Positions 21,767 to 52,501 of a stretch of 64,000 bases of DNA are shown one piece after another. Position 1 is the first letter of the stretch, and each line of letters opens with the position of its first letter. Source of the stretch: a virus; IMG/VR virus record IMGVR_UViG_3300021964_000012, positions 1-64,000 of that record; one strand, written 5' to 3'. A program made the translations under genes and the position numbers. The notes under the pieces are model-generated. The model had not been told where the DNA came from. It saw only the letters and a program-made list of their open reading frames with translations, and ran no database searches.

Positions 21767-21812
21767 AATTTAAAAATTAAACCATACAATAGTTTGCATA
21801 CTAATTAACAGT

Positions 21813-22906: not shown

Positions 22907-22916
22907 AAAAGGATAC

Positions 22917-23669: not shown

Positions 23670-24009
23670 AGATGTATTTGCAATTTTTAATCGTTTGATA
23701 GCCGATATAGAAAAAAATAAGGTTGACTATGAGTACAGATTATACTATAATAAAGAAACATGTGAGCCTCTTTTTTATACCATGGATGATAAATCTCAAG
23801 GTGATTATATTGTAGTCTCGAAAGAACAATATACCGAAGGACGTTATGATGTCAGGATACGTAACGGCATTATTGAAAAATTAGTGGATGCCGAAGTTTG
23901 GACCAAACTTGTACCAAGCAATGAAGGAACAACTACTAGAGCAGACAACGTGATGATTATAGATCAAAATGGTTCATTTAAATGGAAAATTAAAAGCTAC
24001 TATCAATAA
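23662..24009 (+). CDS. hypothetical protein
   Basis: The track start 23650 is TTG. ATG 23662 gives an 8-nt overlap with the upstream stop (ATGGATGA). 115 aa. Confidence 0.5.
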   Translation: MDEDVFAIFNRLIADIEKNKVDYEYRLYYNKETCEPLFYTMDDKSQGDYIVVSKEQYTEGRYDVRIRNGIIEKLVDAEVWTKLVPSNEGTTTRADNVMIIDQNGSFKWKIKSYYQ

Positions 24010-24036
24010 TTAAGGTGCAGGGGAAAAGTAAAAACA

Positions 24037-28776: not shown

Positions 28777-29819
28777 GCACACACTTTCCTTTAGATTGGG
28801 CTTATGGAAAAGATGAATTATATATCTTTGATAAAACGCACAGTCAAATTGATAAAAAGTTTCCAAATCAGCGTAACTTGTTAATTAATACCACATGGTT
28901 TGGCAGTCAATTTGGTGATAATAACGACTGCTGGACAGAAGCGATGAATTTAGAAGGTAAATTTACTAATCTATTTTTATTATGTATTATTGATCCAATA
29001 TATCTTTTTGAAGAAGATCTAGAAAAAATAATAAACAAGTACAATATTAAAAACATATATCGAATCGGAATGTTCGAAGGTGAAGCAATGGAATGGAACT
29101 TTCATGCACTTATTGCCAACGACCGCATGCCTGAATATAAGGAAGAAGAGGTATTAATGCAAAGTGCAGACTTTGCGTATATGCTATATCAAAGAAAACC
29201 AAGACTGCATCGAGTTGAAATTACCAATATTTTAAGAGAACAACCGCATCTGTTAGAACGTGGTATTGTTACATTAGGTGGAGTAGCAAAAGATGGAACA
29301 GATTGGCACCAAGGTCTTGAAGTTATTCCAATGACAATAGATGATCTACCGTCGGCATACAAGCAGACAGACGGAGATGATGACGATCATGCTGGAGTTC
29401 CAAATGATCTTGTAACAATTGGACGCCTTGATTTGTGGCAAAACCATTTTTTAAATGTGGTAAGCGAAACAGAATTTGACGAATGGAAACCTGTGTTTAT
29501 GACAGAAAAAATTTGGAAGCCAATGATAGGACTACGTCCGTTTCATGTGCATGGTAATCCAAGATCTTATCAATGGTTAAGAGACAGAGGATTTCGAACA
29601 TTTAATCATTATTGGAAACATTTGCCGGTTGAGACAATTACAGAAGAATACGGTCAACATAATGCACTAATGGATGTAATAAATTATCTAGTGGATATGC
29701 CAAGATTAGAAATAGAACAAATGTACCTTGACATGTTACCAGATTTGCGTTATAATAAAGCTCGCCTTAAAGAATTTAGTAAAGAACAAAAATATAAAAT
29801 GGAGAACTTGTTTGCCTAA
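28761..29819 (+). CDS. putative glycosyltransferase, TEK-motif family
   Basis: 352 aa. VVSETEFDEWKPVFMTEKIWKPMIGLRPFHVHGNPRSYQWLRDRGFRTFNHYW is paralogous to 25500-26510, 42313-43200 and 43191-44249. Confidence 0.45.
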   Translation: MVTRIGTHFPLDWAYGKDELYIFDKTHSQIDKKFPNQRNLLINTTWFGSQFGDNNDCWTEAMNLEGKFTNLFLLCIIDPIYLFEEDLEKIINKYNIKNIYRIGMFEGEAMEWNFHALIANDRMPEYKEEEVLMQSADFAYMLYQRKPRLHRVEITNILREQPHLLERGIVTLGGVAKDGTDWHQGLEVIPMTIDDLPSAYKQTDGDDDDHAGVPNDLVTIGRLDLWQNHFLNVVSETEFDEWKPVFMTEKIWKPMIGLRPFHVHGNPRSYQWLRDRGFRTFNHYWKHLPVETITEEYGQHNALMDVINYLVDMPRLEIEQMYLDMLPDLRYNKARLKEFSKEQKYKMENLFA

Positions 29820-31170
29820 GCAACCAAACGAGACTGATCTAGCATATAAAGAACGTGTACTTAATCCACTTAGTGATAGCATGTGTGGAGCCAAATGGTA
29901 TAATGCAACTATATGGTTAGGCTCAGGCATGACAACTAGTTGCCATCATCCACTTCCACATCATGTAAGTGTAGAGAATGTTATTGCTAATCCTAAGGCA
30001 CTACACAACACGCCACATAAAAAACATGAGCGTTTGCAGATGCAATATGGCGAGCGTCCAAAGGGTTGCGAGTATTGTTGGAAAGTAGAAGACATAGGCA
30101 GAGACAACATCAGTGATAGGGTTTACAAGAGTGTAATCTACGATGATGAAGCACTCAAACATGCCCATGAAACCGACCACAATGAGGACATAGACTTAAA
30201 AACACTAGAAATAGCATTTGATCGTACTTGTAACCTAGCATGCAGTTATTGTAATCCTGCTTTTAGCACCACATGGGTAAAAGATATAAAGAAGAACGGT
30301 GCATATCAAGGCCTCGTAAGCGATGGCCGCAATCATTTTACACATCCACATGATAGCTCGCAGTTGTATAGGTTCAACGAAACTAATCCTTACATCGAAG
30401 CGTTCTTTAAATGGTGGGAATCAGATCTGCACAGAACTTTACAAGAATTACGCATAACAGGTGGAGAACCAATGATGAGCGGACACCTGTGGAAACTATT
30501 AGACTGGTTCAAAGAAAACAAAGGCGCAAGTAAAACACGCATTGCTATCAACAGTAATCTACAGTGTAGCACAGATGATATAGAAAAACTACTTGATCGG
30601 GCTGATAGTGCTCCGCTGGACATTTATACAAGTAACGAAAGCATAGTAGATCAAGCAGAATACATACGTGATGGACTTGACTGGAACACATGGCAGACAA
30701 ACTTTGAAATGTTGGCCTCAAGCAATAAGTTACGTGGTTTGCACAACATGTGTACAATTAATGCATTGTGTTTGGAGTCATTGCCAGAATTTTTAGATTA
30801 TTTACTGAATATAAAAGCAAAATATGGCAGAGACTTTCCTAGTTTTACACTTAATATACTTCGATTTCCTAGTTTTCAAAGTGCATTAGCATTACCTGAC
30901 CAAATACGCTCGGCATACAAAGATCGATTACAACATTGGTTTGATCTCAATGTAGACAACAAACTATTTCATGAACATGAACTTAATCAAACACAACGTT
31001 TATTAGATTACTTAGATGTAGTTAAAACTCCGCACAGTGAAGCATTTGAGACACCAAAACTACACAACGACTTTGTAAAATTTTATACACAGTATGATAT
31101 CAGACGTAATAAAAATTTTAATAAAGTATTTCCAAGTATGAAAGAATGGTTTAATGAGTTACAACTATAA
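29812..31170 (+). CDS. radical SAM enzyme with N-terminal SPASM/twitch-like Cys motif (long subtype)
   Basis: CNLACSYCNP, GGEPMM. N-terminal MCGAKW..(14)..SCHHP ... CEYCWKVEDIG. Start uncertain: the track start 29728 is TTG and overlaps the upstream gene by 92 nt. I prefer TTG 29812 (GGAG 7 nt upstream). ATG 29881 is the alternative. Confidence 0.75.
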   Translation: MPKQPNETDLAYKERVLNPLSDSMCGAKWYNATIWLGSGMTTSCHHPLPHHVSVENVIANPKALHNTPHKKHERLQMQYGERPKGCEYCWKVEDIGRDNISDRVYKSVIYDDEALKHAHETDHNEDIDLKTLEIAFDRTCNLACSYCNPAFSTTWVKDIKKNGAYQGLVSDGRNHFTHPHDSSQLYRFNETNPYIEAFFKWWESDLHRTLQELRITGGEPMMSGHLWKLLDWFKENKGASKTRIAINSNLQCSTDDIEKLLDRADSAPLDIYTSNESIVDQAEYIRDGLDWNTWQTNFEMLASSNKLRGLHNMCTINALCLESLPEFLDYLLNIKAKYGRDFPSFTLNILRFPSFQSALALPDQIRSAYKDRLQHWFDLNVDNKLFHEHELNQTQRLLDYLDVVKTPHSEAFETPKLHNDFVKFYTQYDIRRNKNFNKVFPSMKEWFNELQL

Positions 31171-32437
31171 CAGTAGCGATCCAATAAAAATAAAACTAAG
31201 TGACTTAGAAGAACGTGAACGTTTCTTATTAAGTGAAAGCAAGACTTTTTGCATGTATCCATGGATACACTTACATGCATATCCAACTGGTGAAGCATAT
31301 CCTTGTTGTCATGCTGAAATGGGTGTAGGACAGGTAGGCAACTGCAAAACAAATACAATGTTAGAAATTTGGAATAGCCCTGAACAAAAGAAACTACGTC
31401 AAGATATGTTAACTGAAACCAAAAATGACGCATGCGGAAGATGCTATGAACAAGAAGCATCAGGATTCTTTTCAGGTAGACAAAGTGCAAACAAGCATCA
31501 TGGACACCACATACACAGAACACAAGACACAACTGTCGAGGGTGAGTATAAAGATTTTGAAATGACCTATTGGGATATACGTTTTTCAAACTTGTGTAAT
31601 CTAAGTTGTCGGAGTTGTGGACATATATTTTCTAGTAGTTGGCATAAAGACCAGACTGCTCTTGCTGGCCCCGAATGGGCAAAAAATAACAAGGTGTTAA
31701 ACTATGCAGGACGGTTTAAAACTGATATGATGGAACAGTTAATGGAGCATCTTGACTATGTAGAACAAATATACTTTGCTGGTGGTGAACCACTGATGAT
31801 GGATGAACACTATGTGATACTTGAAGAGCTTGAACGTAGAGGCCGTTTTGATGTGCGACTCATTTACAATACAAATTTTACGCATGTTCAACTTAAAGAA
31901 AGATTGGTTTTTGATTATTGGAAAAAGTTTGACAGTGTAGCAGTTGGTGCAAGTTTGGATGCAATGGGTCCTCGTGCTGAGTACATACGTAAAGGCGCCA
32001 AATGGGACATAGTTGAACAAAACAGACATAAAATGATGGAAATATGTCCAAAGGTTGACTTTTATATTTCACCAACACTTAGTATCATGAATGCCTTGCA
32101 CATACCAGACTTTCACAGAGACTGGGTAAACAAAGGATTGCTTCAAGCACAGGATCTAAACATCAATATATTACAAGATCCTAATTACTATAGAATTGAC
32201 ATTGCACCACAAGCGTACAAAGATCAAATCGTTGATGCGTATGAGAAACATCTTGTTTGGTTACGCCCACAAGATAAACTAAACAGAGCAACTGTTGGTT
32301 TTGAAAGTGCATTACAGTATTTAAAAACAGACAACACGCACTTGTTGGAAAAATTTTGGCAAAAGACTCAACAACTTGATGGCATTCGCAATGAAAATAT
32401 TCTTGACATTATACCAGAATTGGATGCATTAAAGTGA
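31154..32437 (+). CDS. radical SAM enzyme with N-terminal SPASM/twitch-like Cys motif (short subtype)
   Basis: 427 aa. FCMYPWIHLHAYPTGEAYPCCH...LEIWNSPEQKKLRQDM...CGRCYEQE, then CNLSCRSCGH and GGEPLMM. Confidence 0.8.
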   Translation: MSYNYNSSDPIKIKLSDLEERERFLLSESKTFCMYPWIHLHAYPTGEAYPCCHAEMGVGQVGNCKTNTMLEIWNSPEQKKLRQDMLTETKNDACGRCYEQEASGFFSGRQSANKHHGHHIHRTQDTTVEGEYKDFEMTYWDIRFSNLCNLSCRSCGHIFSSSWHKDQTALAGPEWAKNNKVLNYAGRFKTDMMEQLMEHLDYVEQIYFAGGEPLMMDEHYVILEELERRGRFDVRLIYNTNFTHVQLKERLVFDYWKKFDSVAVGASLDAMGPRAEYIRKGAKWDIVEQNRHKMMEICPKVDFYISPTLSIMNALHIPDFHRDWVNKGLLQAQDLNINILQDPNYYRIDIAPQAYKDQIVDAYEKHLVWLRPQDKLNRATVGFESALQYLKTDNTHLLEKFWQKTQQLDGIRNENILDIIPELDALK

Positions 32438-33639
32438 AGTTACCACATGAAAAGTTTTGTGTGTTGCCATGGGTAAGTTTAGAAACATCACCAATTGGAA
32501 CAGTCCGACCTTGTTGTCTAGCAGAAGATGAAATAACAGACAATAACGGCAAAAAATATAGTTTGCTTAATACCGACCTAAATAAAATACACAATAGTGA
32601 TTATATGCAAACATTGCGTAAAGAGTTTTTAGATGGCATTCAACCTGAAACTTGTCGTAAATGTTGGAACGAAGAACGCTCAGGTCGTACCTCAAAACGG
32701 ATGCACACACTTAACAGATTAGAACATATTGTTACAGACACCGAATGGACTGTTGATGCAAAACCCTTGGTGTTTATAGATTTTAAACTTGGCAACATAT
32801 GTAATTTAAAATGTAGAATATGTGGATCGTGGAGCTCGAGTACGTTTGCTGCTGAAGAAGTTAAATTTGAGGGTAAAGACAGCTTTCATTATCAAATGCT
32901 TAAAGATGGAGCATGGCCAAGACGCAATCAAAAGTTTTGGACAGAGATTGATAAACTAATGGAGCAAGTACAATACTTGGAGTTTACTGGTGGCGAACCA
33001 TTTATGATACAAGAACATTTTGATTTACTACAAAGAATGGTTGATCAAGGCATTGCATCAAATGTAGAAATACATTACAATACAAACGGAACACACTTTC
33101 CAGACCATGCAGAATCAATTTGGAAAAATTTTAAATTGGTTGAGATTGCTTTTAGCATAGACGATGTTGGTCCACGTTTTGAATATCAACGTGCAAATGC
33201 CGTATGGGATGAAGTAAATGCAAACATGGATAGATTTGAGGCTCTGCGTGATCGCAACACAAACATACAATTGCAAGTGTGTTCAACTGTGAATATTTTT
33301 AACGTTATGTACTTGGAAGGCTTGGCAAATTGGATTGACCAACGTAATTTTGATTTTATATACTGGAACATGCTACACGAAGCACGGCATCACAGTGTTG
33401 GTACTCTGCCTGACCGTGCAAAAGAGCTTGTATCTAATAAATTAATGTCTGCTAAGGTATCTAATTTTCATATGAAAGAGTTTGTCAAGATAGTAGATTT
33501 TATAGAAGCAGGTATCAGTTTAGATGGCACAGAACTACGTAGAAGTGTGCAACAGGTAGACCGTCGAAGATCACAGGATTTGCGTATACACCATCCAGAA
33601 CTCGCAGATGCAATAGATTACGAAGGACCAAACACATGA
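32434..33639 (+). CDS. radical SAM enzyme with N-terminal SPASM/twitch-like Cys motif (short subtype)
   Basis: 401 aa, GTG start in a GTGA overlap. FCVLPWVSLETSPIGTVRPCC...CRKCWNEE, then CNLKCRICGS and GGEPFM. Confidence 0.8.
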   Translation: MKLPHEKFCVLPWVSLETSPIGTVRPCCLAEDEITDNNGKKYSLLNTDLNKIHNSDYMQTLRKEFLDGIQPETCRKCWNEERSGRTSKRMHTLNRLEHIVTDTEWTVDAKPLVFIDFKLGNICNLKCRICGSWSSSTFAAEEVKFEGKDSFHYQMLKDGAWPRRNQKFWTEIDKLMEQVQYLEFTGGEPFMIQEHFDLLQRMVDQGIASNVEIHYNTNGTHFPDHAESIWKNFKLVEIAFSIDDVGPRFEYQRANAVWDEVNANMDRFEALRDRNTNIQLQVCSTVNIFNVMYLEGLANWIDQRNFDFIYWNMLHEARHHSVGTLPDRAKELVSNKLMSAKVSNFHMKEFVKIVDFIEAGISLDGTELRRSVQQVDRRRSQDLRIHHPELADAIDYEGPNT

Positions 33640-34202
33640 TATTAGTTGTCATAGCACTAGAAGAAGAATTACCAGGATCGTTACCAAGCGGATATAAAAA
33701 ATTAATCACAGGCGTAGGGAAAGTAAATGCAAGTATCGCACTTACTGCTGAGTTATGCCATAACAATCATTATACAAAAATTATAAACTACGGTTCAGCA
33801 GGCGGCAGTAAAGAAATTAAAGGCGAACTTGTAGGAGTAAGTGCAGTTATTGAACGTGATATGGATTGCACTCCTCTTGGCTTGCCATTGTATGTTTCAC
33901 CTGGCGATGAAGAACAAATGATAGTGTGTCAGACCAAACACGACAGTCTGTTTGTGTGCGGAACAGGAGACAGTTTTAGCGTGCCGCACATTAACTATCA
34001 AATATGCGAAATGGAAGCATACGCACTCGCAAAAGTTTGTCATAAATTCAATATTCCTTTTGACTGTTACAAGTACATTTCAGACAGTGACGCAGACGGT
34101 GAAGATCAAGGCCGTGAATGGGAAGCAAATGTTCACAAGGGTGCAGAACTGTTTAGAAGAACAATACTCACTGAACAAGAACAGATAGCATTTGAATGGT
34201 AG
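33636..34202 (+). CDS. mtnN: 5'-methylthioadenosine/S-adenosylhomocysteine (5'-deoxyadenosine) nucleosidase, PNP_UDP_1 family
   Basis: 188 aa. TGVGKVNASIALT, IINYGSAGG, GTGDSF and EMEAYALAKVCHKFNIPFDCYKYISD align with E. coli MtnN/Pfs blocks (GIGKVAAA, IINTGSAGG, SGDAF, VEMEATAIAHVCHNFNVPF..ISD). Shorter than the E. coli enzyme. Confidence 0.8.
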   Translation: MILVVIALEEELPGSLPSGYKKLITGVGKVNASIALTAELCHNNHYTKIINYGSAGGSKEIKGELVGVSAVIERDMDCTPLGLPLYVSPGDEEQMIVCQTKHDSLFVCGTGDSFSVPHINYQICEMEAYALAKVCHKFNIPFDCYKYISDSDADGEDQGREWEANVHKGAELFRRTILTEQEQIAFEW

Positions 34203-35506
34203 ACAGGCCTGAACAAAAGCCTGAAACCTTATGCATGGCTCCGTGGACACACACCTATCTATCTCCGCAGACCGAACGCAGAATGTGTTGTGCTAGTCGT
34301 GAATCAGCACAGAGCTTTAAACAGTATATTGATACTGGATCGGGCACAGGAACATACAATCCGCAAACACTAGAAGAACATTGGAACGGCGATCATATGC
34401 GTAGTGTAAGAAGGCGTATGATGGCTGGTGAAAAACTAAGCGAGTGCGAAGTTTGTACAGATAAACTTCTTAATACTGATGTGTATAGAACTTACTTTTG
34501 GCACTTGTTTCAACACCGTTATGATGAGCTATGGACCAGTACCGACGACACTGGTTGGACCTCAATGAAGCCAATCAGTTGGGACTATAGATTTTCAAAC
34601 TTGTGTAACTTTAAATGTCGTACCTGTGGTGATATGCTTAGTTCAAGTTGGGAAACAGAACAACGTAAACACAACATGGTTAATTTAGACAACCCAAAAA
34701 ACAACTGGATGCGGCCAGAGGTTCGTAAAGAAATAAGCAAATTTCAGGATACACAAATTGAAAAAGAGTTTTCAGATGCAGTTGAAGAACATAGAATTGA
34801 AGAAATCTATTGGGTAGGTGGCGAACCACTGATGTATGAACAACACTGGCGATACATGAAACGCATAGTCGAACTTGGCGATGGGCCTGGATTGTATGCA
34901 CGTTATAATAGCAATCTTAGTAGAGTGAATTATAAAGGTCAAAATCTCTATAAAGATATACTTGCTAATATACGTGATTGGCAGATATGTGCCAGTATTG
35001 ATGGCACAGGTGCTATTGGTGAATATATAAGAACTGGACTAAACTATGATCAATTTGTAGATAATTTTAAACAAGGTTGTGATATCGCAACGCACAGACG
35101 GCAAATGCGTTTAGACTTTACTCTTACACTACCTGGATTGTTTGAAGTTGTACACATGCAACAATTAGCCGATAGATTAGGTGTTGACATCCTTGCTAAA
35201 GTTATTTTTACATTTACGCCAGATATTATTATGTCACCACTTGCATTGCCTCGTAAATTATTAGATCGCATGGTCAACCAACTAATTAACAATAATGTAT
35301 TAGGAACTGCATTGCAAGACGTGCTTGTCCAACTTAAAAATAGACCAACGATGGAAGAACAGTTTCCTGATTACATACAAGGTATGCAAGAAGGAAAAAG
35401 GCGTGTACTCAAATTAGAAGAGATTAGAAATGATAAGTTTACTATGAAAGATATACTCAGCAAAGATCAAGAAGTGTTAGATTGGTGGAATAGCATTGAT
35501 GCTTGA
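34196..35506 (+). CDS. radical SAM enzyme with N-terminal SPASM/twitch-like Cys motif (short subtype)
   Basis: 436 aa. LCMAPWTHTYLSPQTERRMCC...CEVCTDK, then CNFKCRTCGD and GGEPLM. Confidence 0.8.
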   Translation: MVDRPEQKPETLCMAPWTHTYLSPQTERRMCCASRESAQSFKQYIDTGSGTGTYNPQTLEEHWNGDHMRSVRRRMMAGEKLSECEVCTDKLLNTDVYRTYFWHLFQHRYDELWTSTDDTGWTSMKPISWDYRFSNLCNFKCRTCGDMLSSSWETEQRKHNMVNLDNPKNNWMRPEVRKEISKFQDTQIEKEFSDAVEEHRIEEIYWVGGEPLMYEQHWRYMKRIVELGDGPGLYARYNSNLSRVNYKGQNLYKDILANIRDWQICASIDGTGAIGEYIRTGLNYDQFVDNFKQGCDIATHRRQMRLDFTLTLPGLFEVVHMQQLADRLGVDILAKVIFTFTPDIIMSPLALPRKLLDRMVNQLINNNVLGTALQDVLVQLKNRPTMEEQFPDYIQGMQEGKRRVLKLEEIRNDKFTMKDILSKDQEVLDWWNSIDA

Positions 35507-36554
35507 TCGGGTTGAAATGCAATTGCGTGGGCCAAATGGTTTGTTGCCTGTATTCTTTGATGTGTATGATAATAGTTTAAGTCGTAAATGGTTAACTGCA
35601 TTTAATAATTTACTGGATAATAAATTACATCTTGAAAAAAACTATTGCTTTTTTGGATTTCCTGACAATGAACGTAACTTAGACTTTTTAGCCAGTGAAA
35701 TCAATAGAACTATTGCAGGGATAAATGGCAGCAACATTGACTATGTTATAAAAGATTATTTTTCTGCTGAAAATATGGTTGAAAAAAATTGGAGTGAACT
35801 TAACCAAGCAGTGAAAATTGATATAAATCATACAAAATTCAACCAGTTGCATTTATACTTTGAGGAAACACAAGGTGTGAGTGGTGCAATGAGCGAACAT
35901 TATACTAATGCTGATGCAGAAACACGTTGGTATATCAGGCAACTTAATTTATTATGTCATGAAGCAGAATGTCTTATAATAAGTTTAGGAAGAAAAGATG
36001 CGGCTCCGGAATGGATACGTCCTAGTAATGTTATGTGTTGGTTGCATGCTCCAAGATTTGTACTAGATGCTGAAGATTATAATCAATTTGGAGTTGACAC
36101 AATAGCAAGAGATCACGGTGGTGTATACGTTGGTGTTAACAAAGCAGTAGGAAAACATCATTATGAGGTTTTTAGCGACGAAGGCAGAGACAGTAGAATT
36201 GACGAGCTTACAACCACCACACTTAAACCACAAACAGAAGCTGCAGGTGATTTTGACATAGAATGGGGTAAAGCAACTTCTGACCAAAGTTTTATGCAAA
36301 CAAAACTAAATGATTTTAGAACATGGCTCAAGGCAAACAATTTTGATCCAGATGACCCTAGTTTGACAATAGGTCATCCAAAAATTGGACAGGTTGATTT
36401 AAAACACAGTTTTGGCACAGAGGATTTTTTGCAAGTGTTAGCAAAATTATCACAATATCTTGATGTATACAGTATCAAAACCAGTAAAAGTTATTGCGAA
36501 TACGATTACACATGGCATCAAAGTAAAGAACTACAAATACCTTTAATTGATTGA
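35499..36554 (+). CDS. hypothetical protein (island member)
   Basis: The track start 35496 is TTG. ATG 35499 gives an 8-nt overlap with the upstream stop. 351 aa, no motif recognised. Confidence 0.6.
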   Translation: MLDRVEMQLRGPNGLLPVFFDVYDNSLSRKWLTAFNNLLDNKLHLEKNYCFFGFPDNERNLDFLASEINRTIAGINGSNIDYVIKDYFSAENMVEKNWSELNQAVKIDINHTKFNQLHLYFEETQGVSGAMSEHYTNADAETRWYIRQLNLLCHEAECLIISLGRKDAAPEWIRPSNVMCWLHAPRFVLDAEDYNQFGVDTIARDHGGVYVGVNKAVGKHHYEVFSDEGRDSRIDELTTTTLKPQTEAAGDFDIEWGKATSDQSFMQTKLNDFRTWLKANNFDPDDPSLTIGHPKIGQVDLKHSFGTEDFLQVLAKLSQYLDVYSIKTSKSYCEYDYTWHQSKELQIPLID

Positions 36555-36579
36555 CAACTACACTAAAGGAGTGTATAAT
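36551..36579 (+). promoter_or_regulatory. sigma70-consensus promoter candidate upstream of metK
   Basis: TTGACA (36551-36556), 17 nt spacer, TATAAT (36574-36579). The -10 box overlaps the ATG of the small ORF at 36578. Confidence 0.4.
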
Positions 36580-36682
36580 GATAAAATGGTTCAAGAATCT
36601 TATCAGCAAAATAAAACTAGAAATAAGATATCGTAAAAAATTAAAAGAACTGAGGAAAAGGGATCCTTTTATATACAAATGA
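36578..36682 (+). CDS. small basic ORF (34 aa), hypothetical
   Basis: MIKWFKNLISKIKLEIRYRKKLKELRKRDPFIYK. AAGGAG lies 7 nt upstream, and the stop overlaps the metK start (ATGA). Below the ORF-track size cutoff. It conflicts with use of the overlapping promoter candidate. Confidence 0.3.
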   Translation: MIKWFKNLISKIKLEIRYRKKLKELRKRDPFIYK

Positions 36683-37779
36683 GTTATATTTTCACATCAG
36701 AGTCAGTGAGCAAAGGCCATCCTGACAAAATAGCAGACCAAATATCAGATGCATTAGTCGATGCTGGTTTGCAAGCCGGTGACGAAACAACACGTGTTGC
36801 AGTTGAAACAATGGTAACAACAAATTATGTTGTACTAGCAGGAGAAGTAAAAAACTTCAACGTCACTGATGAACAAGTTGAGCAGATTATTAGAGACAAA
36901 GTTAAAGAGATCGGCTATGAGCAAGAAGGCTTTCATTGGGATAAACTTAAAGTTGATAACAAAACAATCAACAACCAGTTGCACTCTCAAAGTTCAGACA
37001 TTGCTCTAGGTACAGATGATTTTGGTGCAGGTGATCAAGGTATTATGTTTGGATATGCTTGCAATGACAATGAAGCAATGATGCCAGCACCTATCTATTA
37101 TTCACACGAACTACTAAAAGAACTAAATGACATGCGAGCAGATGGTTATCATTTTTTGCTACCAGATGCAAAGAGTCAAGTTAGTGTTGAATATGAAGGC
37201 GGAAAAGTAAAACGTATTGATCAAGTTGTTATAAGTCATCAACACAAAGAAGGTTTTCAACATAGTGTTATAGCACCTTTCAAAACCGCAGTAGAAAAAG
37301 TACTAGGCAATTTAATAGATGACAATACAGTATTTCATTTTAATCCTACTGGCAAATTTGTTATTGGTGGACCCGATGGTGACACTGGACTTACTGGTCG
37401 TAAAATTATTGTTGATACCTATGGTGGTTTTGCTCCTCACGGTGGTGGGGCATTTAGTGGAAAAGATCCTACTAAGGTAGACCGTAGTGCGGCCTATATG
37501 GCTCGTTGGTTGGCAAAGAATGTAGTTGCAGACGATATGGCTGACTGGTGTCAAATACAATTAAGTTATGCTATTGGCGTAAAAGAACCTACCAGCATCT
37601 ATGTAGATTCAAATGGACACAACAGAAGTATACAAAAGTTTATCAGAGACAATATTGATCTTACGCCAAAAGGTATAATTGATAGATTTGATCTTTTTAA
37701 ATTTTATGAATACAGTGCAAATTGCACATACGGACACTTTGGCAACAAAGATGTTCCTTGGGAAAAGGTAGGCTGGTAA
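36679..37779 (+). CDS. metK: S-adenosylmethionine synthetase
   Basis: 366 aa. FTSESVSKGHPDKIADQISDALVDA, GAGDQGIMFGYA and GGGAFSGKDPTKVDRSAAYMARW are canonical MetK motifs. Confidence 0.95.
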   Translation: MSYIFTSESVSKGHPDKIADQISDALVDAGLQAGDETTRVAVETMVTTNYVVLAGEVKNFNVTDEQVEQIIRDKVKEIGYEQEGFHWDKLKVDNKTINNQLHSQSSDIALGTDDFGAGDQGIMFGYACNDNEAMMPAPIYYSHELLKELNDMRADGYHFLLPDAKSQVSVEYEGGKVKRIDQVVISHQHKEGFQHSVIAPFKTAVEKVLGNLIDDNTVFHFNPTGKFVIGGPDGDTGLTGRKIIVDTYGGFAPHGGGAFSGKDPTKVDRSAAYMARWLAKNVVADDMADWCQIQLSYAIGVKEPTSIYVDSNGHNRSIQKFIRDNIDLTPKGIIDRFDLFKFYEYSANCTYGHFGNKDVPWEKVGW

Positions 37780-37889
37780 TGTTTCCACTTAATGATTATG
37801 ATCCAAATTTTTGGGTTAAATGGGCAGCAAATATTATAATTATATTACTTGTATTTTTTGTTGGCATGTCATTATTAGGATTTTTCTAA
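37779..37889 (+). CDS. small hydrophobic peptide (36 aa), hypothetical
   Basis: MFPLNDYDPNFWVKWAANIIIILLVFFVGMSLLGFF. It exactly fills the metK-carbamoyltransferase gap, with TAATG and TAAATG junctions. Confidence 0.4.
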   Translation: MFPLNDYDPNFWVKWAANIIIILLVFFVGMSLLGFF

Positions 37890-39395
37890 ATGAGAATACT
37901 AGGAGTTAGTGCAGGATTCCACGATGCCGCTCTTACTGTGGTACACAATCACAGAATACTGTTTGCAGGTCATGCTGAACGATATAGCAAAAAGAAAAAC
38001 GATCCTACTATTCCTCAAAGTCTTCAAGAACACGTTCTTAAATATGGACCTTTTGACATGATAGTCTACTATGAAAAGCCATATCTAAGACAACTGCGTA
38101 AAATTAAAAGTGGCGAAAATTGGGGAGGTGCTTGGCGTACACGTACCGAACTCGTACGTACAATTCCTTATATAATGGAAAACACCAAAGCAGAAATAAG
38201 CAGTGTTGGACATCATCTATCGCATGCGGCCGCAGGCTTTCAAACATCACCATTCGATGATGCAACAGTAGTTGTTATTGATGCAATAGGTGAGTCGGAT
38301 ACTATAAGCATATACCACGCCTACTACAATGGTGCATGTTTAGCAGGTGAACATGCTAAGGCAAATTACAAACTATTATACAAACAAACCTATCCACACA
38401 GTATTGGTATGTTCTACAGTGCAGTTACACAACGTTGTGGACTGAAGCCAATGGACGAAGAGTACATCACAATGGGCATGGCCGCATATGGGGATGCCGA
38501 CAAGGCATACAAAACATTAAAACGTGCAACTGTACAATTCGCAGATATTCCACTGTTTAAAGAAAACCTACACATAGGTATTGATGATGTTGAGTTTGCA
38601 CCTGATGTTACTGCTGAAGACATAGCTGCCGCAGGACAACAGTTATGCGAAGAAATGGTTATGGCTGTAATGCGTAGGGCAAAGGCCATTGGCACTAGTA
38701 AAAATCTAGTGTACATGGGAGGAGTTGCACTTAACTGTGTGATCAATCGTCGATTGGGTGAACTGTTTAACAAAATATGGATAATGCCCAACCCAGGAGA
38801 TGCAGGAAGCAGTTTGGGAGCCGCGGCCTACACATATGGTAGAGACATAAACTTTACAACACCATACTTGGGCTCAAATATAGCAGGTGAATATCCAGTG
38901 GATGAACTGTTAAAAGAATTAGAAACAAATCAAATTGTTGGAGTCGCAAATGGACGTGCAGAATTTGGTCCAAGAGCGTTAGGTAACAGAAGTTTACTAG
39001 CCGATCCGCGTGGACGAAATATCAAGGATCGAGTGAATGAGATAAAACGTAGACAAAAGTTTAGACCGTTTGCTCCTGTGATACTTGAAGAACATGTGCA
39101 TGACTATTTTGTAATGCCTCTTTATCAACCCACAAGTCGCTACATGCAGGTAGTAGCACGTTGCACAAAGCCAGATAAGTTTCCTGCTATTATACACGTA
39201 GATGGCACATCAAGAGTACAAACAGTTCCTGACAATGATAGTGGTATAAGACGGTTGTTGAGTGCGTGGTATAAAAAAACCGGTTGTCCTATGTTGTTGA
39301 ATACCAGTTTAAACATAAGAGGCGAGCCAATGGTTGATGATAGATTTGATGCTAATCGCTTTCAAAAAGAGTATGGAGTAACTGTATGCAGTTAG
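37890..39395 (+). CDS. carbamoyltransferase, NodU/CmcH/TobZ family
   Basis: 501 aa. MRILGVSAGFHDAALTVVHNHRILFAGHAERYSKKKND matches the family N-terminus (ILG.s...HD.aa.lv..g.i..a..EER.sR.K.D). Confidence 0.85.
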   Translation: MRILGVSAGFHDAALTVVHNHRILFAGHAERYSKKKNDPTIPQSLQEHVLKYGPFDMIVYYEKPYLRQLRKIKSGENWGGAWRTRTELVRTIPYIMENTKAEISSVGHHLSHAAAGFQTSPFDDATVVVIDAIGESDTISIYHAYYNGACLAGEHAKANYKLLYKQTYPHSIGMFYSAVTQRCGLKPMDEEYITMGMAAYGDADKAYKTLKRATVQFADIPLFKENLHIGIDDVEFAPDVTAEDIAAAGQQLCEEMVMAVMRRAKAIGTSKNLVYMGGVALNCVINRRLGELFNKIWIMPNPGDAGSSLGAAAYTYGRDINFTTPYLGSNIAGEYPVDELLKELETNQIVGVANGRAEFGPRALGNRSLLADPRGRNIKDRVNEIKRRQKFRPFAPVILEEHVHDYFVMPLYQPTSRYMQVVARCTKPDKFPAIIHVDGTSRVQTVPDNDSGIRRLLSAWYKKTGCPMLLNTSLNIRGEPMVDDRFDANRFQKEYGVTVCS

Positions 39396-40228
39396 AACAC
39401 ACACGAACAAGATATCATCGAAACTTTGCCTATTGGAAAAATGACGAAGTTATTGGAAAAAATCTTAGAGAGTATGGCGAATATCAGCAAAAAGAAATTG
39501 ATCTATTAGTTGGTTTATTAAACAGTGTAAATAGCAAACAAAAAGTGGTTTGGGACATTGGTGCCAACATAGGAGTTCATACTATGGCATTTTCTAAACA
39601 TAGTACTTTTGTTTGCAGTTGGGAAGCAAATCCACAAAACTTCAAACTACTACAAATGAATACACAAGGAAAACTTGCTCCAAATGTAAAAGTACACAAT
39701 GTTGCTATTAGCAATGGTAAAAAAGACACAATACAAATACAAGACTTTGATCAGTCTAAGTCTAGTAACAAAGGTGAATTATCAATTGTAGAAAAAGGTG
39801 GAGTAGAAATTTCAGCAAGAAGCATCGACAGTTATATGATGAATTATCCTCTTCCTAGTTTGATAAAAATTGATGTAGAAGGTCATGAACTTGAAGTACT
39901 GCAAGGTGCACTTGTAATGCTAAAAACAGTAAAACCAATATTGTATTTTGAAACTGCTGATAAAGTGAGTTATGCAGAACATATAACATTTCTTAAAGAT
40001 CTTGAATATCGCATGTGGTGGTTTGCATGTCCTAATTTTAATAAAAATAATTATAATAAAAATGACAATAATACCTGGGGTAGAAGTGTTATCTGTAGTA
40101 TACTCGCAATACACAAGGATGTGGTTGGATTAAATACTATAGAATTGCAAGAAGTAATTGATGCCGACGATCATTGGTTAAAGATGGATTGGGATTACGA
40201 TACAGGACTTACAAGAGCAATAGAATGA
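39386..40228 (+). CDS. FkbM-family SAM-dependent methyltransferase
   Basis: 280 aa. VVWDIGANIGVHTMAFS and LIKIDVEGHELEVLQGA are FkbM hallmarks. Confidence 0.75.
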   Translation: MQLEHTRTRYHRNFAYWKNDEVIGKNLREYGEYQQKEIDLLVGLLNSVNSKQKVVWDIGANIGVHTMAFSKHSTFVCSWEANPQNFKLLQMNTQGKLAPNVKVHNVAISNGKKDTIQIQDFDQSKSSNKGELSIVEKGGVEISARSIDSYMMNYPLPSLIKIDVEGHELEVLQGALVMLKTVKPILYFETADKVSYAEHITFLKDLEYRMWWFACPNFNKNNYNKNDNNTWGRSVICSILAIHKDVVGLNTIELQEVIDADDHWLKMDWDYDTGLTRAIE

Positions 40229-40539
40229 CCAAAGAAAACGATTTAAGACAACGTGTAATAGAATCACTTCAAACAGTATTTGATCCTGAGATGCCCAGTA
40301 TAAGTGTTTACGATTTAGGTTTAATCTATAAGATAGAGATCAAAGGTGACTGGGTTGGCATAGAACATACACTAACTAGTATGGCATGTCCTTTTGCAGA
40401 TCAAATTTGTGCCGATATAGAACATGCAGTTATTAGTACACCTGGCGTGCGTGCTATTGATAGACAATTGGTATTTGAACCTATTTTTACAATAGAAATG
40501 GTTCCTGAAGAAACCAAACTAATAATGGGCTGGTACTAA
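40225..40539 (+). CDS. DUF59 / SufT-PaaD-like Fe-S cluster assembly protein
   Basis: Start moved to ATG 40225 (ATGA overlap). LRQRVIESLQTVFDPEMPSISVYDLGLIYKIEI...TLTSMACPFAD fits the DUF59 pattern, including the conserved Cys. Confidence 0.7.
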   Translation: MTKENDLRQRVIESLQTVFDPEMPSISVYDLGLIYKIEIKGDWVGIEHTLTSMACPFADQICADIEHAVISTPGVRAIDRQLVFEPIFTIEMVPEETKLIMGWY

Positions 40540-40607: not shown

Positions 40608-41297
40608 TTAGAACTTTGGTGCTATGTTTACGGGATTATCTATCCAATTGTATAATTCTTCCGCTATCTTTTCATGACCAAGTTCACTTGGATGACCATC
40701 ACCTGAAATAAAGTTGTCATTTGTATAGCTTATTTGTGTAAGGTTTCCAATGGTACCGGGGACTAATTCTCCTGATTTTCCATTGGCAGCAAGTAGCTCC
40801 ATTGCATTTTCTTTAGCATTTTTGTAAAAACGCGATTTGTCAATTTCTGGCACCAGTGTCGGATGCTGCCAACCAAGCAGATAGGTGTCTCGAATATGGT
40901 ATTTGGTGCAAAGATTTTGTAAAATATACAAGGTGTTGTTAAGGTGCCATTCACCTAGTTTATTTGTGTATACCAATCTATAATAGAGTTTATCTCTATC
41001 GTTTTGTGGATGCATTTCGATTGCCTTACCACTTTCATCAAGTGCTATTTGTCTTTCTAAAGCAGTGATAAAAAATATTGCACTATAGGTATGGTCTTTT
41101 TGATAGTCATTCTCAAGGAATTTTCTTAATTGAAATAGCATATGATGTACACTGCTTGAACCTTGACTAAGATCAATTAATTCGCAATTGAGTCTTCTTG
41201 CTAGTATACCTGCATATATTTTTTCTGGCGGATATAGTCCTCCAATTGCCTGACCAGTGGCCCAACTGTCGCCAAAGTTTAGTAGATAGTGTGTCAA
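40608..41297 (-). CDS. SGNH/GDSL hydrolase (esterase / O-acyl hydrolase)
   Basis: 229 aa, TTG start in a TTGA overlap. Block I NFGDSWATG lies near the N-terminus and block V GDGHPSELGH near the C-terminus. Confidence 0.7.
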   Translation of the reverse strand: MTHYLLNFGDSWATGQAIGGLYPPEKIYAGILARRLNCELIDLSQGSSSVHHMLFQLRKFLENDYQKDHTYSAIFFITALERQIALDESGKAIEMHPQNDRDKLYYRLVYTNKLGEWHLNNTLYILQNLCTKYHIRDTYLLGWQHPTLVPEIDKSRFYKNAKENAMELLAANGKSGELVPGTIGNLTQISYTNDNFISGDGHPSELGHEKIAEELYNWIDNPVNIAPKF

Positions 41298-42325
41298 AGA
41301 TAGGTTTCCAATTCACCTTTACGTCTAATGTCTTGTGTACAACAACTAACGCCACCGTCCCAAAAGTAGCTGTGTCTAAGTTCTGAAATAATTGGGTTTA
41401 TACGATGCTTTTCACAGAAATCAAATACCTGTTTATTGTAGGCACTGAATATAACATTCTCTTCGTCTAGTACTAAGCAGTTTACATCAAATACAGTATC
41501 GCTTACATACCCAACCCATTCTTTGAGATAGGTATCAACAAATTTTGTAAACTCAGGTGTAGGAGTTTGTCCTTGTACATACCAAGCACCATTGAAGTTT
41601 TCTTCTTTGAATTTACCTACTGCCATTGCATGCCATATTGTGCTAGATTCAAGTTTACTAACTTCCCAACCTGGAAAGTCTGAGTCTAGGTCCAATTGGT
41701 CGTCCCATTTACTACTCAATATCACACCAGGCTTTAGAATTGCAAATACTGCATCGCCATGTCCATCTGTGATTGCTTCATGAAAACGATATCGACTGTC
41801 TAAACAATTTTCTTGTATCCAACGACTTTGATCTGGTTTAAGATAATCACTATTATCAAAGAATATATCGGTCCCACAACGTACTATACAACTTGCACTT
41901 GCACCGGCTACAACACAATCTGGATCATGTGCTAAAAACTCGCCATGAGGATTAATCACTGCATCACCATATTCAGCACAAATATCATCTAATTCAAGTA
42001 CTCTGAGAACACGTAACAGTTTGTCACCTAAGGTGATTTGCCAATCTCTTGGCGTTAAAGGCGGCAACGGTGCACCATTGTCTTTTATATTGAAATATTG
42101 AAAATCTTCTTTGCTAATCAGACCAGGACGTTTAACAAGTGCACCATATTGCTCGCAGGTCTTTTGTAAATTATCTAAGTCTTCATTTGTTTCATCTAAT
42201 ATCTGCCCTAATTGATCTCGTACTGTAGAGTTGTTAATAAAATCAAAATAATCTGGAGTGTATGCTCTACCTACTATAACTTCTTCTAGAGGTTGCCAAC
42301 TGGTGTAACTATTTACTTTGGACAT
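41294..42325 (-). CDS. amidinotransferase, StrB1 / glycine amidinotransferase (AGAT) family
   Basis: 343 aa. N-terminal VNSYTSWQPLEEVIVG (StrB1: VHNEWDPLEEVIVG) and C-terminal FWDGGVSCCTQDIRRKGELETYL (StrB1: LGGGFHCATLDVRRTGALETYQF), including the catalytic Cys position. Confidence 0.85.
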   Translation of the reverse strand: MSKVNSYTSWQPLEEVIVGRAYTPDYFDFINNSTVRDQLGQILDETNEDLDNLQKTCEQYGALVKRPGLISKEDFQYFNIKDNGAPLPPLTPRDWQITLGDKLLRVLRVLELDDICAEYGDAVINPHGEFLAHDPDCVVAGASASCIVRCGTDIFFDNSDYLKPDQSRWIQENCLDSRYRFHEAITDGHGDAVFAILKPGVILSSKWDDQLDLDSDFPGWEVSKLESSTIWHAMAVGKFKEENFNGAWYVQGQTPTPEFTKFVDTYLKEWVGYVSDTVFDVNCLVLDEENVIFSAYNKQVFDFCEKHRINPIISELRHSYFWDGGVSCCTQDIRRKGELETYL

Positions 42326-43200
42326 ATTAATATATCATTGCTTTCTTTGTTTAAGAACAATTGTTGATTATGTATGAGATCATCTTTGCAATCCACATAC
42401 ATACTGTGCGTCTTTTTTGATTTTGCAATTCTACACATTTCTGTACATACTGCCTTCCAACGTTCAGTTGCATCTTCAATCTCATCATATGAATGATCAA
42501 CTACATGATCAAATGTTTTATATCCCATTTCACGTAATTGAGTTACTGACCCCATTGCCCCTGCTAAGACAAATGGTTGACAGTTTTTAATTGCTCTAAA
42601 AACTTTTTCAGTTAATCTGACAGGACCGTTGAGATCACTTTCTATAACAAAATTAAAGTAAGCATCACTGTGATGCAGTCCTACTGTGTATTTCATGTCT
42701 GCATGTTCGTCTGGTGTCAATAAGTCACAATGAAAAGGAGCCATTTTTAAAAAAAATTCTGTATGATGTTTTAGACTTCCTAAGTTGCTAGTATCAATTG
42801 GGTTTATATCATCTTCCACAGTGATTCGATTGTTATATCCAAAGTATCCTTTCTTGTGTAAACCTTTACTCCATAATCTTGCCATTGTGTATGCACGCCA
42901 TTGTCTGTGTGTGCGGACAAGTGCAGTAAAATTCTTGCTCCGTTCTTGAGTATGAAATACAGTAGGCATACTTCTATTACGATGGCGGTAAAGCAGTTCA
43001 TCGCTACACGTATAGGTAATACCTGCGAGATCACGACTTTTAGTGGATTTTTCGATAAAATGTAAATTTTCTGCCTTAAAACCTGCTCGTACAGCATCAG
43101 CACTAACATTTTTTACTAATAAATTTTCTGGTAATAAAAAATAAAGATTTGTAATGTTTTTAAACATAATAGTTTCAGCTAGATCTGTTATCAAATCCAT
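42313..43200 (-). CDS. putative glycosyltransferase, TEK-motif family
   Basis: 295 aa. FVIESDLNGPVRLTEKVFRAIKNCQPFVLAGAMGSVTQLREMGYKTFDHVVDHSYDEIED. Confidence 0.45.
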   Translation of the reverse strand: MDLITDLAETIMFKNITNLYFLLPENLLVKNVSADAVRAGFKAENLHFIEKSTKSRDLAGITYTCSDELLYRHRNRSMPTVFHTQERSKNFTALVRTHRQWRAYTMARLWSKGLHKKGYFGYNNRITVEDDINPIDTSNLGSLKHHTEFFLKMAPFHCDLLTPDEHADMKYTVGLHHSDAYFNFVIESDLNGPVRLTEKVFRAIKNCQPFVLAGAMGSVTQLREMGYKTFDHVVDHSYDEIEDATERWKAVCTEMCRIAKSKKTHSMYVDCKDDLIHNQQLFLNKESNDILICPK

Positions 43201-44249
43201 TTTGCCATCATTCCTTGTAGTTCATTCCATAAGAGTTTTTCAAAATCTGCACTGTAAAACCAATTGTAGTTGTGCTCTACAATGCTATTTACTGCGGTTT
43301 GCAAGGTGGTCTTTTCTTTTTGACTCATATTATTAATGTCTTGTAACAGTTTGCCTATCTCATATGTGCGAACTGAATCATCTGCTTCATCGTATGATTC
43401 GTCCCAAAATTCACTAAATGTTTTAAAACCATATCTACGCAAATACTCTAAGCTACCTTTGCAACTCTGTATTATAAAAGGTTGTTGCATTACAATTGGT
43501 TTGAAAGATTTTTCTGTTAGATGATTTTTACGTCCTCGATATACTGTTTCAGTAACTATGTGTATCAGACTATTGTTTGCTTGTTCCCATAAATCAATTT
43601 GATGGCTCTTTGCCGCATAACCTGACCCGTTATCTATCATTAAGGGTAGTCGAACCTGAGGACAATCTAAATCATACTTTACACATAATAATTGTAAACT
43701 TTGTCCTTCGTATGGACATACGTCTGGAAATGATATTAAATTTTTATCAAGTAAATCTCGCCCAACAAACTGTTGAAGCATTTCAATACGATGTTTACGT
43801 TCTCCACCAATTATGTTGTTAGGACAAAGAAAAGTATTATAAGGCTTGCGTTCTGAAAATTTTTGTGCTATACTAGTTCTATTATAACCTCGATACCAAT
43901 CAAGTGCAGCCCAGCCATGAAAGAAATAGTAGTCCATTTCAAGACCATAAGTATCTTTGGCCCAAGAAGCATCTTCGCTGTTGTATTCGCTCGTAACAAG
44001 TCTACATTTGTTTGTATGCAAATAAAGTGGTTTGAACTGGTCAATAAATGGTATAAATCTATTACGATAAATTGGTTCTTGATCCCACATTATAATTCTA
44101 TTATTAGGAACGCCATGTACTGCCGGCTTGTTACAAATATCCTTAAAATCTGTACTACCAAATGGGTCAAACCAATGGAGTCCTGTACTGGGTATGTTTT
44201 TAACAACTGGTACAAAAACACCATCGTAAATTTCATCAATTCTAATCAT
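43191..44249 (-). CDS. putative glycosyltransferase, TEK-motif family
   Basis: 352 aa. IVTETVYRGRKNHLTEKSFKPIVMQQPFIIQSCKGSLEYLRRYGFKTFSEFWDESYDEADD. Its ATG (44249-44247) overlaps the ATG of the divergent gene (44248-44250). Confidence 0.45.
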   Translation of the reverse strand: MIRIDEIYDGVFVPVVKNIPSTGLHWFDPFGSTDFKDICNKPAVHGVPNNRIIMWDQEPIYRNRFIPFIDQFKPLYLHTNKCRLVTSEYNSEDASWAKDTYGLEMDYYFFHGWAALDWYRGYNRTSIAQKFSERKPYNTFLCPNNIIGGERKHRIEMLQQFVGRDLLDKNLISFPDVCPYEGQSLQLLCVKYDLDCPQVRLPLMIDNGSGYAAKSHQIDLWEQANNSLIHIVTETVYRGRKNHLTEKSFKPIVMQQPFIIQSCKGSLEYLRRYGFKTFSEFWDESYDEADDSVRTYEIGKLLQDINNMSQKEKTTLQTAVNSIVEHNYNWFYSADFEKLLWNELQGMMAKWI

Positions 44250-52500: not shown

Positions 52501-52501
52501 G

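Follow-up and report, generated by a model that had tools for sequence, protein, structure and literature searches.

We analysed positions 1 to 64,000 of the virus record IMGVR_UViG_3300021964_000012 in IMG/VR (64,000 nucleotides; hereafter the window), in which genes for an MtnN/Pfs-family nucleosidase, an S-adenosylmethionine (SAM) synthetase (metK) and a stand-alone DUF59 protein are embedded among five radical SAM (rSAM) genes, rSAM1 to rSAM5. We consider it about an even chance (probability roughly 0.5) that these three accessory genes, all common in marine phages, were captured as a cofactor-economy module into the pathway formed by the five rSAM enzymes and a carbamoyltransferase (gene carbT). 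A module of this kind would be an optional booster of one lineage rather than something that the pathway requires. The three genes are recognizable members of their families, keep intact active sites, evolve under purifying selection, are physically and translationally coupled to genes of the cluster and lie in transcription units that share a promoter type. A real functional tie is favoured by how tightly they are embedded, by the purifying selection on them and by DUF59 and metK having reached rSAM clusters repeatedly. The main beneficiary, we infer, would be the rSAM pathway and not SAM use in general.

Within such a module, every rSAM turnover would convert SAM into methionine and 5'-deoxyadenosine. 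MetK would use ATP to re-adenylate the methionine thus set free. A short nucleosidase of the MtnN type would split 5'-deoxyadenosine into adenine and 5-deoxyribose and would also hydrolyse S-adenosylhomocysteine (SAH) made by the FkbM methyltransferase of the cluster, clearing competitive inhibitors of SAM enzymes and giving back adenine. At high demand, the DUF59 protein would presumably assist in supplying the five twitch-domain rSAM enzymes with their roughly ten [4Fe-4S] clusters. The net reaction would turn ATP into adenine, 5-deoxyribose, pyrophosphate and phosphate. Because rSAM chemistry returns methionine, MetK and an MtnN-type nucleosidase would suffice for a closed cycle, and LuxS and methionine synthase (MetH), neither of which was seen in the 64-kb window, would be unnecessary. 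Pfs/MtnN hydrolyses SAH and 5'-methylthioadenosine (MTA) as well as 5'-deoxyadenosine, and its loss lets these compounds inhibit SAM enzymes (PMC10986504); rSAM enzymes are inhibited by 5'-deoxyadenosine (PMC8102628). SufT proteins consisting of DUF59 only are required under high Fe-S demand (PMC4982691), and in marine T4-like viruses, genomes rich in rSAM genes encode paaD (DUF59) together with Fe-S carriers (PMC5332604).

Integrity and coupling of the helper genes

Window proteins were assigned to families with Pfam, NCBIfam and PHROGs models. All five rSAM proteins exceeded the cut-off of NF033640 ('twitch domain-containing radical SAM protein'), with the auxiliary-cluster domain at the N terminus. 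They are old paralogues with 21-30% mutual identity, and the CxxxCxxC motif and four N-terminal cysteines were invariant across their alignment.

The nucleosidase matched PF01048 at 50.8 bits (cut-off 25.1). We aligned it with Escherichia coli MtnN (EC 3.2.2.9), using a reference sequence checked to be identical to PDB 3o4v/1jys. Glu12, Ser76, Phe151, Met173/Glu174 and Asp197 of the E. coli enzyme corresponded to E11, S54, F114, M126/E127 and D150, so that all six catalytic or binding residues were matched. In MtnN, Glu12 activates the attacking water, Glu174 binds the ribose together with Met173, and Asp197 protonates N7. In an alignment of 37 family members (41-87% identity), E11, M126/E127 and D150 were invariant (37/37), F114 was kept in at least 90%, and the position of S54 held Ser or Thr. 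An AlphaFold2 model (mean predicted local distance difference test score, pLDDT, 88.4) pointed to the same fold: the top 50 Foldseek matches in the PDB were all MTA/SAH nucleosidases (MTANs), with TM-scores of 0.66-0.79. The nearest solved structure was the Brucella enzyme 4pr3.

With 188 residues against 232 in E. coli, the protein had been called truncated in the first-pass annotation, which proved incorrect. The 44-residue shortfall consists of family-wide deletions, covering E. coli residues ~13-33 (a helix and a hairpin), parts of 104-130, including part of the 104-112 loop, and about ten residues of 152-165. The subfamily is naturally short (176-200 aa), and the nucleosidase is thus a normal member of it rather than a shortened MtnN. 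It further differs from E. coli MtnN in being encoded by a phage inside an rSAM operon and in matching the short NF004168 family best; the proposed removal of inhibitory SAM by-products would be common to both. Its substrate range may cover 5'-deoxyadenosine, MTA and SAH. The short family is common in marine bacteria (Oceanospirillaceae at 52%, Porticoccaceae, SAR86 and SAR116) and also occurs in Chryseobacterium. One apparent phage best match, Acinetobacter phage MD-2021a (L018, CAKLQH020000009.1; we refer to individual loci and contigs by L and P numbers), was discarded as a bacterial chromosome contig: it carries 5S rRNA, ileS, lspA, ribF and the ssu operon, and its pfs_2 is a host gene. 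We also rejected a defence or counter-defence role, as PADLOC output was limited to a 13.6-bit partial match for the nucleosidase, with no match to either MetK or DUF59.

MetK scored 433.9 bits with TIGR01034 (equivalog cut-off 309.4), and its N, M and C Pfam domains were all above cut-off. Alignment to the solved MetK 5t8s showed intact GHPDK, GAGDQG, TGRK, GGGAFSGKD and KVDRS motifs; the list of substrate-binding motifs is that given by Kieft et al. 2021 (bioRxiv 10.1101/2021.01.05.425418). The DUF59 protein scored 58.2 bits with PF01883 (cut-off 23.5) and matched TTHB138 (2cu6) over its full length and TM0487 (1uwd) over query residues 8-96. The T-x-x-x-C-P motif is kept, reading TSMACP in the window, TTPGCP in TTHB138 and TTPMCP in TM0487. 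Like SufT of Staphylococcus aureus and Mycobacterium tuberculosis (PMC4982691, PMC9045647), it is a single domain of about 100 aa with the Cys motif. Unlike SufT, it scored under the equivalog cut-offs (TIGR02945, 89 against 143; TIGR03406, 72.6 against 203), PaaD models matched about equally well, and family scans found no suf or isc genes in the 64-kb window.

We computed the rate of non-synonymous substitution divided by the synonymous rate (dN/dS) against homologues in 5-15 related loci. The values were 0.054 for the nucleosidase, 0.10 for MetK and 0.05 for DUF59; dS was high, so they are upper-level indications and not precise. The rSAM genes gave 0.04-0.11, the same as the three helpers (0.05-0.10). 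These data support the view that all three helpers are intact, under purifying selection and, judged by sequence, catalytically competent.

The gene junctions could be read directly from the sequence. The nucleosidase lies between rSAM4 and rSAM5, as first described, with an ATGA (33636-33639) common to the rSAM4 stop and its own start, and with a 7-nt overlap (34196-34202) between its stop and the rSAM5 ATG. The metK gene begins 2,477 nt after the nucleosidase ends, in agreement with the 2.5 kb reported before, and its ATG is overlapped by the stop codon of a 34-codon micro-ORF (open reading frame). The fkbM stop and the DUF59 start again share an ATGA. Convergent genes on the minus strand start at 40608, which makes DUF59 the final sizeable gene on the plus strand; it does close the block. 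Its start is ATG 40225 (104 aa), with which independent gene calls concur, and not TTG 40174. A 36-aa hydrophobic ORF (MFPLNDYDPNFWVKWAANIIIILLVFFVGMSLLGFF; 37779-37889, plus strand) occupies the gap between metK and carbT; in the near-identical contig L203 there is no gap and no such ORF, and carbT follows metK immediately.

We scanned the 64 kb for perfect TTGACA-N17-TATAAT promoters and found exactly two, against 0.15 expected by chance; two such sites were reached in 2 out of 100 shuffles. Both are on the plus strand at gene boundaries inside the rSAM block. The upstream site heads a unit of rSAM2, rSAM3, rSAM4, the nucleosidase, rSAM5 and unk35496 (ORF 35499-36554), and it is kept in L008, L009, L011 and L012. 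The downstream site heads the unit from metK to DUF59. Its hexamers are kept, with a variable spacer, in L001-L007, where it lies 128 nt upstream of metK (L001-L004 and L006-L007) or 1,397 nt upstream (L005); L001-L004 have an additional 640 nt between this promoter and unk35496. We found no convincing plus-strand terminator between the two units. The single radical SAM operon proposed earlier was thus borne out in co-orientation and coupling, but not as one simple operon, given the two internal promoters. That both units bear the same promoter class speaks weakly for co-expression rather than against it. A SAM riboswitch upstream of metK was rejected because an Rfam search of that region returned no family matches and the leader was less structured than shuffled sequence (z = +1.27), with no stable structure.

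Occurrence of the helpers in related and unrelated phages

Neighbourhoods were examined over ±10 kb around each match. Within the sub-lineage of the window, the nucleosidase was found at 77-90% identity in 16 IMG/VR loci, and the order rSAM1-4, nucleosidase, rSAM5, unk35496, metK, carbT, DUF59 was kept wherever the locus was long enough. The exception, L015, has the nucleosidase and DUF59 and no metK at that place. Relatives L005-L007, L009-L012 and L015 contain insertions of 1-2 kb that are absent from the window, in the nucleosidase-rSAM5 and rSAM3-rSAM4 gaps. An insert between the nucleosidase and rSAM5 in L104/L187 resembles window ORF 54025-55110, which suggests a mobile gene.

Relatives of rSAM3 occur in more than 590 viral stretches and among more than 7,500 metagenomic proteins, on contigs of up to 347 kb, and the five-rSAM module with unk35496 and carbT is conserved in hundreds of uncultivated phage contigs. 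As the wider clade we took the best 80 rSAM3-related loci (40-89% identity), restricting helper counts to loci with the relevant neighbours present. The core of these loci comprises g20855, g22076, g22890, g24037, rSAM1-5, unk35496 and carbT; the last two were each found in 55 out of 80, with unk35496 always directly after rSAM5. DUF59 has entered rSAM clusters in cis in four lineages and at two different positions, after carbT (L060, L183) and before rSAM1 (L083). The metK gene is linked to rSAM clusters in cis in two lineages; in the divergent multi-rSAM cluster L140/L142 it directly follows carbT and has its own perfect promoter.

Several observations weigh against a module captured for this pathway. 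The nucleosidase was present in cis in 2 of the 68 related loci with both rSAM4 and rSAM5, and the corresponding counts were 1 of 47 for metK and 1 of 48 for DUF59, so the pathway normally runs without these helpers in cis. The nucleosidase-rSAM linkage is effectively a single event, belonging to one shallow sub-lineage (rSAM3 at least 80% identical). Homologues of metK at 77-82% identity occur in 485 viral stretches, mostly in replication-module contexts, and those of the nucleosidase in 573. Among 70 nucleosidase loci outside the window lineage, an rSAM gene lay within 10 kb in 3, as counted with a profile that detects N-twitch-type rSAM proteins only; metK was found in 2 of the 70 and DUF59 likewise in 2. 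DUF59 stands beside thyX in small phage contigs. Adjacent metK and DUF5522-nucleosidase genes occur without rSAM, next to phosphoribosyltransferase and sulfotransferase genes (L318, L327, L202), an adjacency for which a role in general SAM use or in purine salvage is at least as good an explanation. The closest cellular homologues of the nucleosidase (51-57%) are stand-alone housekeeping genes of marine gammaproteobacteria that share one conserved housekeeping neighbourhood. Judged by alignment, the protein lacks loops that help to form the 5'-substituent pocket in E. coli MTAN, the equivalents of ~104-112 and ~152-165 being shortened. It also scores under every NCBIfam equivalog cut-off: 81 against 129 for the best model, NF004168 (a 185-aa 'nucleosidase'), 58.8 against 169 for NF004079, 45.9 against 152 for TIGR01705 and 43.3 against 73.8 for TIGR01704.

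The metK contexts outside rSAM clusters were mostly T4-like, with DNA polymerase B, a 5'-3' exonuclease and a MoxR/DUF2201 pair; this pair lies 5-6 kb from metK in many marine phages other than ours. About 14 of roughly 75 such metK loci had one N-twitch-like rSAM gene within 10 kb. The nucleosidase directly follows a clamp-loader gene in several T4-like contigs and adjoins baseplate genes in five related jumbo-phage loci. A cassette of the form metK, (DUF5522-)nucleosidase, sulfotransferase was located in L318 (7928-11381), L327 (438-3587) and L202 (5501-7476), its metK being identified in L318 and L327 alone and not in L202. A phosphoribosyltransferase lies upstream of the cassette in L318 and L202, and a carbamoyltransferase a few kb off in both. 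What looked like a metK-rSAM-nucleosidase cassette in L327 proved to be an artefact: its CxxxCxxC lies in the DUF5522 N-terminal extension of the nucleosidase.

These results support the initial claims in part. The proposed cofactor supply and clean-up module stands as a set of intact, coupled genes, but not as a general companion of the rSAM pathway. The idea that the genes are dedicated to rSAM chemistry rather than being stand-alone auxiliary genes agrees with their conserved embedding, whereas all three are widespread in unrelated contexts. Genes for metK, mtnN and rSAM occurred together in the sub-lineage of the window, but nearly all related clusters lacked the trio in cis.

Alternative explanations and earlier work

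The trio may instead be general SAM-economy auxiliary metabolic genes, for which the rSAM operon is merely a convenient insertion site. They would then supply SAM and clear SAH, MTA and 5'-deoxyadenosine for methylation (of DNA or glycans) and polyamine synthesis, with DUF59 supporting Fe-S proteins at large. We regard this as a serious possibility, though one we would bet against. It agrees with the many metK genes that have DNA polymerase B, MoxR or further genes unrelated to rSAM as neighbours, 27 of 79 of which in other phages have their own promoter (11-12/12 consensus), and with a nucleosidase that is widespread in phage replication and nucleotide modules. The metK-nucleosidase adjacency without rSAM points the same way, as do contigs that carry both genes 40-50 kb apart (L108/L294 and L109/L293), the FkbM methyltransferase in the metK-to-DUF59 unit, and the earlier description of viral metK and mtnN as organosulfur auxiliary genes (bioRxiv 10.1101/2021.01.05.425418). 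It fits less well with a nucleosidase placed exactly between two rSAM genes, with overlapping codons, over 16 loci, or with DUF59 and metK having landed repeatedly in rSAM clusters; a methylation cycle would also require LuxS and methionine synthase, none of which was found in the window. Purine salvage, in which the nucleosidase would release adenine from adenosine-type nucleosides for conversion to AMP and replication of a large genome, seems improbable to us. Pfs has been described as a salvage and detoxification enzyme (PMC10986504). A phosphoribosyltransferase directly adjoins the homologue in L202, with metK in between in L318, and the homologue directly follows the clamp-loader gene within a nucleotide/replication module in P0060 and P0053, with phosphoribosyl pyrophosphate (PRPP) synthetase nearby in P0060. 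The window, however, contains no phosphoribosyltransferase or other salvage gene that we could find, and its nucleosidase is translationally coupled to rSAM rather than replication genes. Purine salvage and by-product removal are not mutually exclusive.

More improbable still is a nucleosidase that acts on the pathway itself, stripping adenine from an rSAM-adenosylated intermediate in the manner of MqnB/MTAN or HpnG. MqnE and HpnH add the 5'-deoxyadenosyl radical to their substrates, and MqnB/MTAN and HpnG then remove the adenine. As in those systems, the gene for an MTAN-family nucleosidase neighbours rSAM genes, here with coupled translation between two of them, and the Helicobacter pylori MTAN structures 4bmz, 4bmy and 4bn0 ('futalosine hydrolase' entries) were among the structural matches. 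Unlike MqnB and HpnG, the window protein has no family-level match: the futalosine hydrolase model TIGR03664 matched weakly, at 38 bits against a cut-off of 124.7 and over residues 22-75 only, and no HpnG model was found in NCBIfam at E ≤ 0.01. It is also dispensable in nearly all related clusters (66 of 68 lack it) and so is not obligatory unless a host MTAN substitutes, and its nearest relatives are housekeeping or replication-module genes. Least credible, in our judgement, is that the helpers are hitch-hiking or decaying insertions without function in this phage. They are missing from most related clusters, and other DNA has been inserted between cluster genes in relatives, but their frames and active sites are intact, dN/dS is 0.05-0.10 over 5-15 homologues, and synteny and the metK promoter are kept.

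Parts of this picture have been published. Kieft et al. 2021 (bioRxiv 10.1101/2021.01.05.425418) reported that phage-encoded MetK and MtnN keep conserved motifs and have a dN/dS of less than 1, and that viral MetK stands apart from bacterial homologues and is common to dissimilar phages. Their subject was methionine degradation and sulfide metabolism, and the term radical SAM has 0 occurrences in the text; in the window, by contrast, the two genes lie together with five rSAM genes in a single operon. Nishimura et al. 2017 (PMC5332604) described 12 rSAM genes in a 183-kb marine T4-like genome together with paaD, A-type carriers and glutaredoxin, and read the viral Fe-S helpers as serving virus-encoded Fe-S proteins. 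Those genomes resemble the window in combining a marine phage, many rSAM genes and a DUF59-family gene. They differ in that metK and a nucleosidase go unmentioned and the co-occurrence is at genome level rather than by operon embedding; we found no A-type carrier or IscU in the window. Viral metK/mtnN auxiliary genes and phage paaD/DUF59 helpers serving phage rSAM enzymes are thus already on record, and a literature search for a link between phage metK, nucleosidase and radical SAM returned nothing relevant. What is new is that genes for SAM regeneration, for the removal of by-products and for Fe-S assistance are brought together at the operon level around an rSAM pathway.

The micro-ORF, the surrounding genes and implications

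The micro-ORF that precedes metK and is translationally coupled to it encodes MIKWFKNLISKIKLEIRYRKKLKELRKRDPFIYK. No other gene of the cluster is as well conserved, and 46 out of 47 related clusters have it between unk35496 and carbT. The 21 C-terminal residues (LEIRYRKKLKELRKRDPFIYK) were almost invariant over 72 DNA versions in which synonymous changes occurred freely. Because residues -9 to -2 belonged to the search motif, their invariance is imposed in part; residues -21 to -10 lay outside it. We found matches to 89 representative clusters of stand-alone proteins of 33-76 aa, with tandem copies in some relatives. The start codon lies inside the -10 box of the promoter at 36551-36579, and an RNA started there would therefore skip the micro-ORF.

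A short conserved ORF beside rSAM enzymes of the SPASM/twitch type is what is looked for in pathways for ribosomally synthesized and post-translationally modified peptides (RiPPs) or for peptide-derived cofactors, and the micro-ORF answers this description. Hypothetically, the peptide that it encodes could serve the five rSAM enzymes as a scaffold or as a precursor of the RiPP or cofactor type. Models from Pfam, NCBIfam and PHROGs detected no PqqD or RiPP recognition element (RRE), peptidase or transporter family among the cluster proteins, several of which have no family assignment, so the precursor role is a hypothetical one; a literature search on the motif gave nothing relevant. If the pathway were peptide-based, the helper trio might mark heavy stoichiometric use of SAM, with the micro-protein as substrate or scaffold. 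It would be a PqqA/MftA-like or RiPP precursor that is then carbamoylated, methylated or glycosylated, and the sub-lineage would be made self-sufficient by a closed SAM cycle and its own Fe-S loading factor. We consider this doubtful.

The window comes from an uncultivated marine jumbo myophage of roughly 328 kb; a metagenomic protein from a 328,292-bp contig matches one of the cluster proteins with 100% identity. GC content is about 36-37%. Its baseplate wedge protein is 33-35% identical to those of Atu_ph07, Rak2-like and related jumbo phages, and homologues of the 4,490-aa ORF adjoin baseplate genes in the related contigs L320 and L341. A DNA search of 50,697 deposited phage genomes found zero relatives of the window. 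A protein search with rSAM3 for cultured relatives returned Vibrio phages K566/K567 alone, at 22% identity, which leaves no cultured relative for comparison and no cultured phage with the five-rSAM module. The features of the window are listed below.

Table. Coordinates of features in the window, with family matches
Feature	Position	Strand	Match or remark
Baseplate wedge protein	1522-4929		phrog_10646, E = 1e-283
4,490-aa ORF	4933-18405	+	directly after the baseplate wedge gene
Seven unassigned ORFs	20855-26510	+	part of the plus-strand block from about 20.8 to 40.5 kb
rSAM1	26488-27927	+	NF033640, 299 bits (cut-off 170); start from independent gene calls
Short-chain dehydrogenase/reductase (SDR) epimerase/reductase	27943-28776	+	
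Unassigned ORF	28761-29819	+	
Perfect sigma-70-type promoter	29728-29756	+	56 nt before rSAM2 start
rSAM2	29812-31170	+	NF033640, 296.5 bits (cut-off 170)
rSAM3	31154-32437	+	NF033640, 405 bits (cut-off 170)
rSAM4	32434-33639	+	NF033640, 342 bits (cut-off 170)
Nucleosidase, 188 aa	33636-34202	+	PNP_UDP_1; MtnN/Pfs family
rSAM5	34196-35506	+	NF033640, 283 bits (cut-off 170)
unk35496, conserved protein, 351 aa	35499-36554	+	
Perfect sigma-70-type promoter	36551-36579	+	overlaps unk35496 stop; about 100 nt before metK
Micro-ORF, 34 aa	36578-36682	+	
metK, S-adenosylmethionine synthetase, 366 aa	36679-37779	+	
carbT, NodU/CmcH-type carbamoyltransferase	37890-39395	+	Carbam_trans_N and Carbam_trans_C (Pfam)
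fkbM, FkbM-family SAM-dependent methyltransferase	39386-40228	+	PF05050 and TIGR01444
Stand-alone DUF59 (SufT/PaaD-like) protein, 104 aa	40225-40539	+	

The rSAM2 start is TTG 29812, with GGAG in front of it, and independent gene calls on near-identical metagenome contigs agree. The core protein unk35496 had no match in Pfam, NCBIfam or PHROGs. Its AlphaFold2 model (pLDDT 82) had no fold neighbour in the PDB, and in BFVD its only matches were uncharacterised phage proteins, one of them from Atu_ph07. The unassigned ORFs 25500-26510 and 28761-29819 (plus strand) and 41294-42325, 42313-43200 and 43191-44249 (minus strand) matched one another weakly. Positions and copy numbers of their homologues vary inside related rSAM clusters, and the ORFs appear to form a family of interchangeable accessory cassettes. 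In ORF 41294-42325, the C terminus (GGVSCCTQD) is reminiscent of amidinotransferase-type active sites.

Just downstream of the cluster, within 46166-48921 and 50443-53957 (both minus strand), lie genes for a DegT aminotransferase, an NDP-sugar 4,6-dehydratase and ThyX, as well as a pair for a MoxR AAA protein and a DUF2201 (VWA/metallopeptidase) protein. Together with the SDR, carbamoyltransferase and FkbM genes, the nearby aminotransferase and 4,6-dehydratase point to sugar-type tailoring. A sixth radical SAM gene of a different type (329 aa; 60928-61917, minus strand) is located 20 kb downstream and adjoins three tRNAs (61906-61978, 63187-63257 and 63267-63340, minus strand).

If the trio turned out to be general auxiliary genes, the window would be an ordinary example of the known viral metK, mtnN and DUF59 genes. 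If the captured cofactor-economy module is real, phages would not only import enzymes but also tune the cofactor economy of these enzymes through SAM regeneration, inhibitor removal and Fe-S loading, and they would do so by gathering mobile accessory cassettes into one operon. It would also suggest that the handling of SAM or 5'-deoxyadenosine is limiting in the marine host, and it would offer an experimental handle on the very abundant, entirely uncharacterised five-rSAM pathway of uncultivated jumbo phages.

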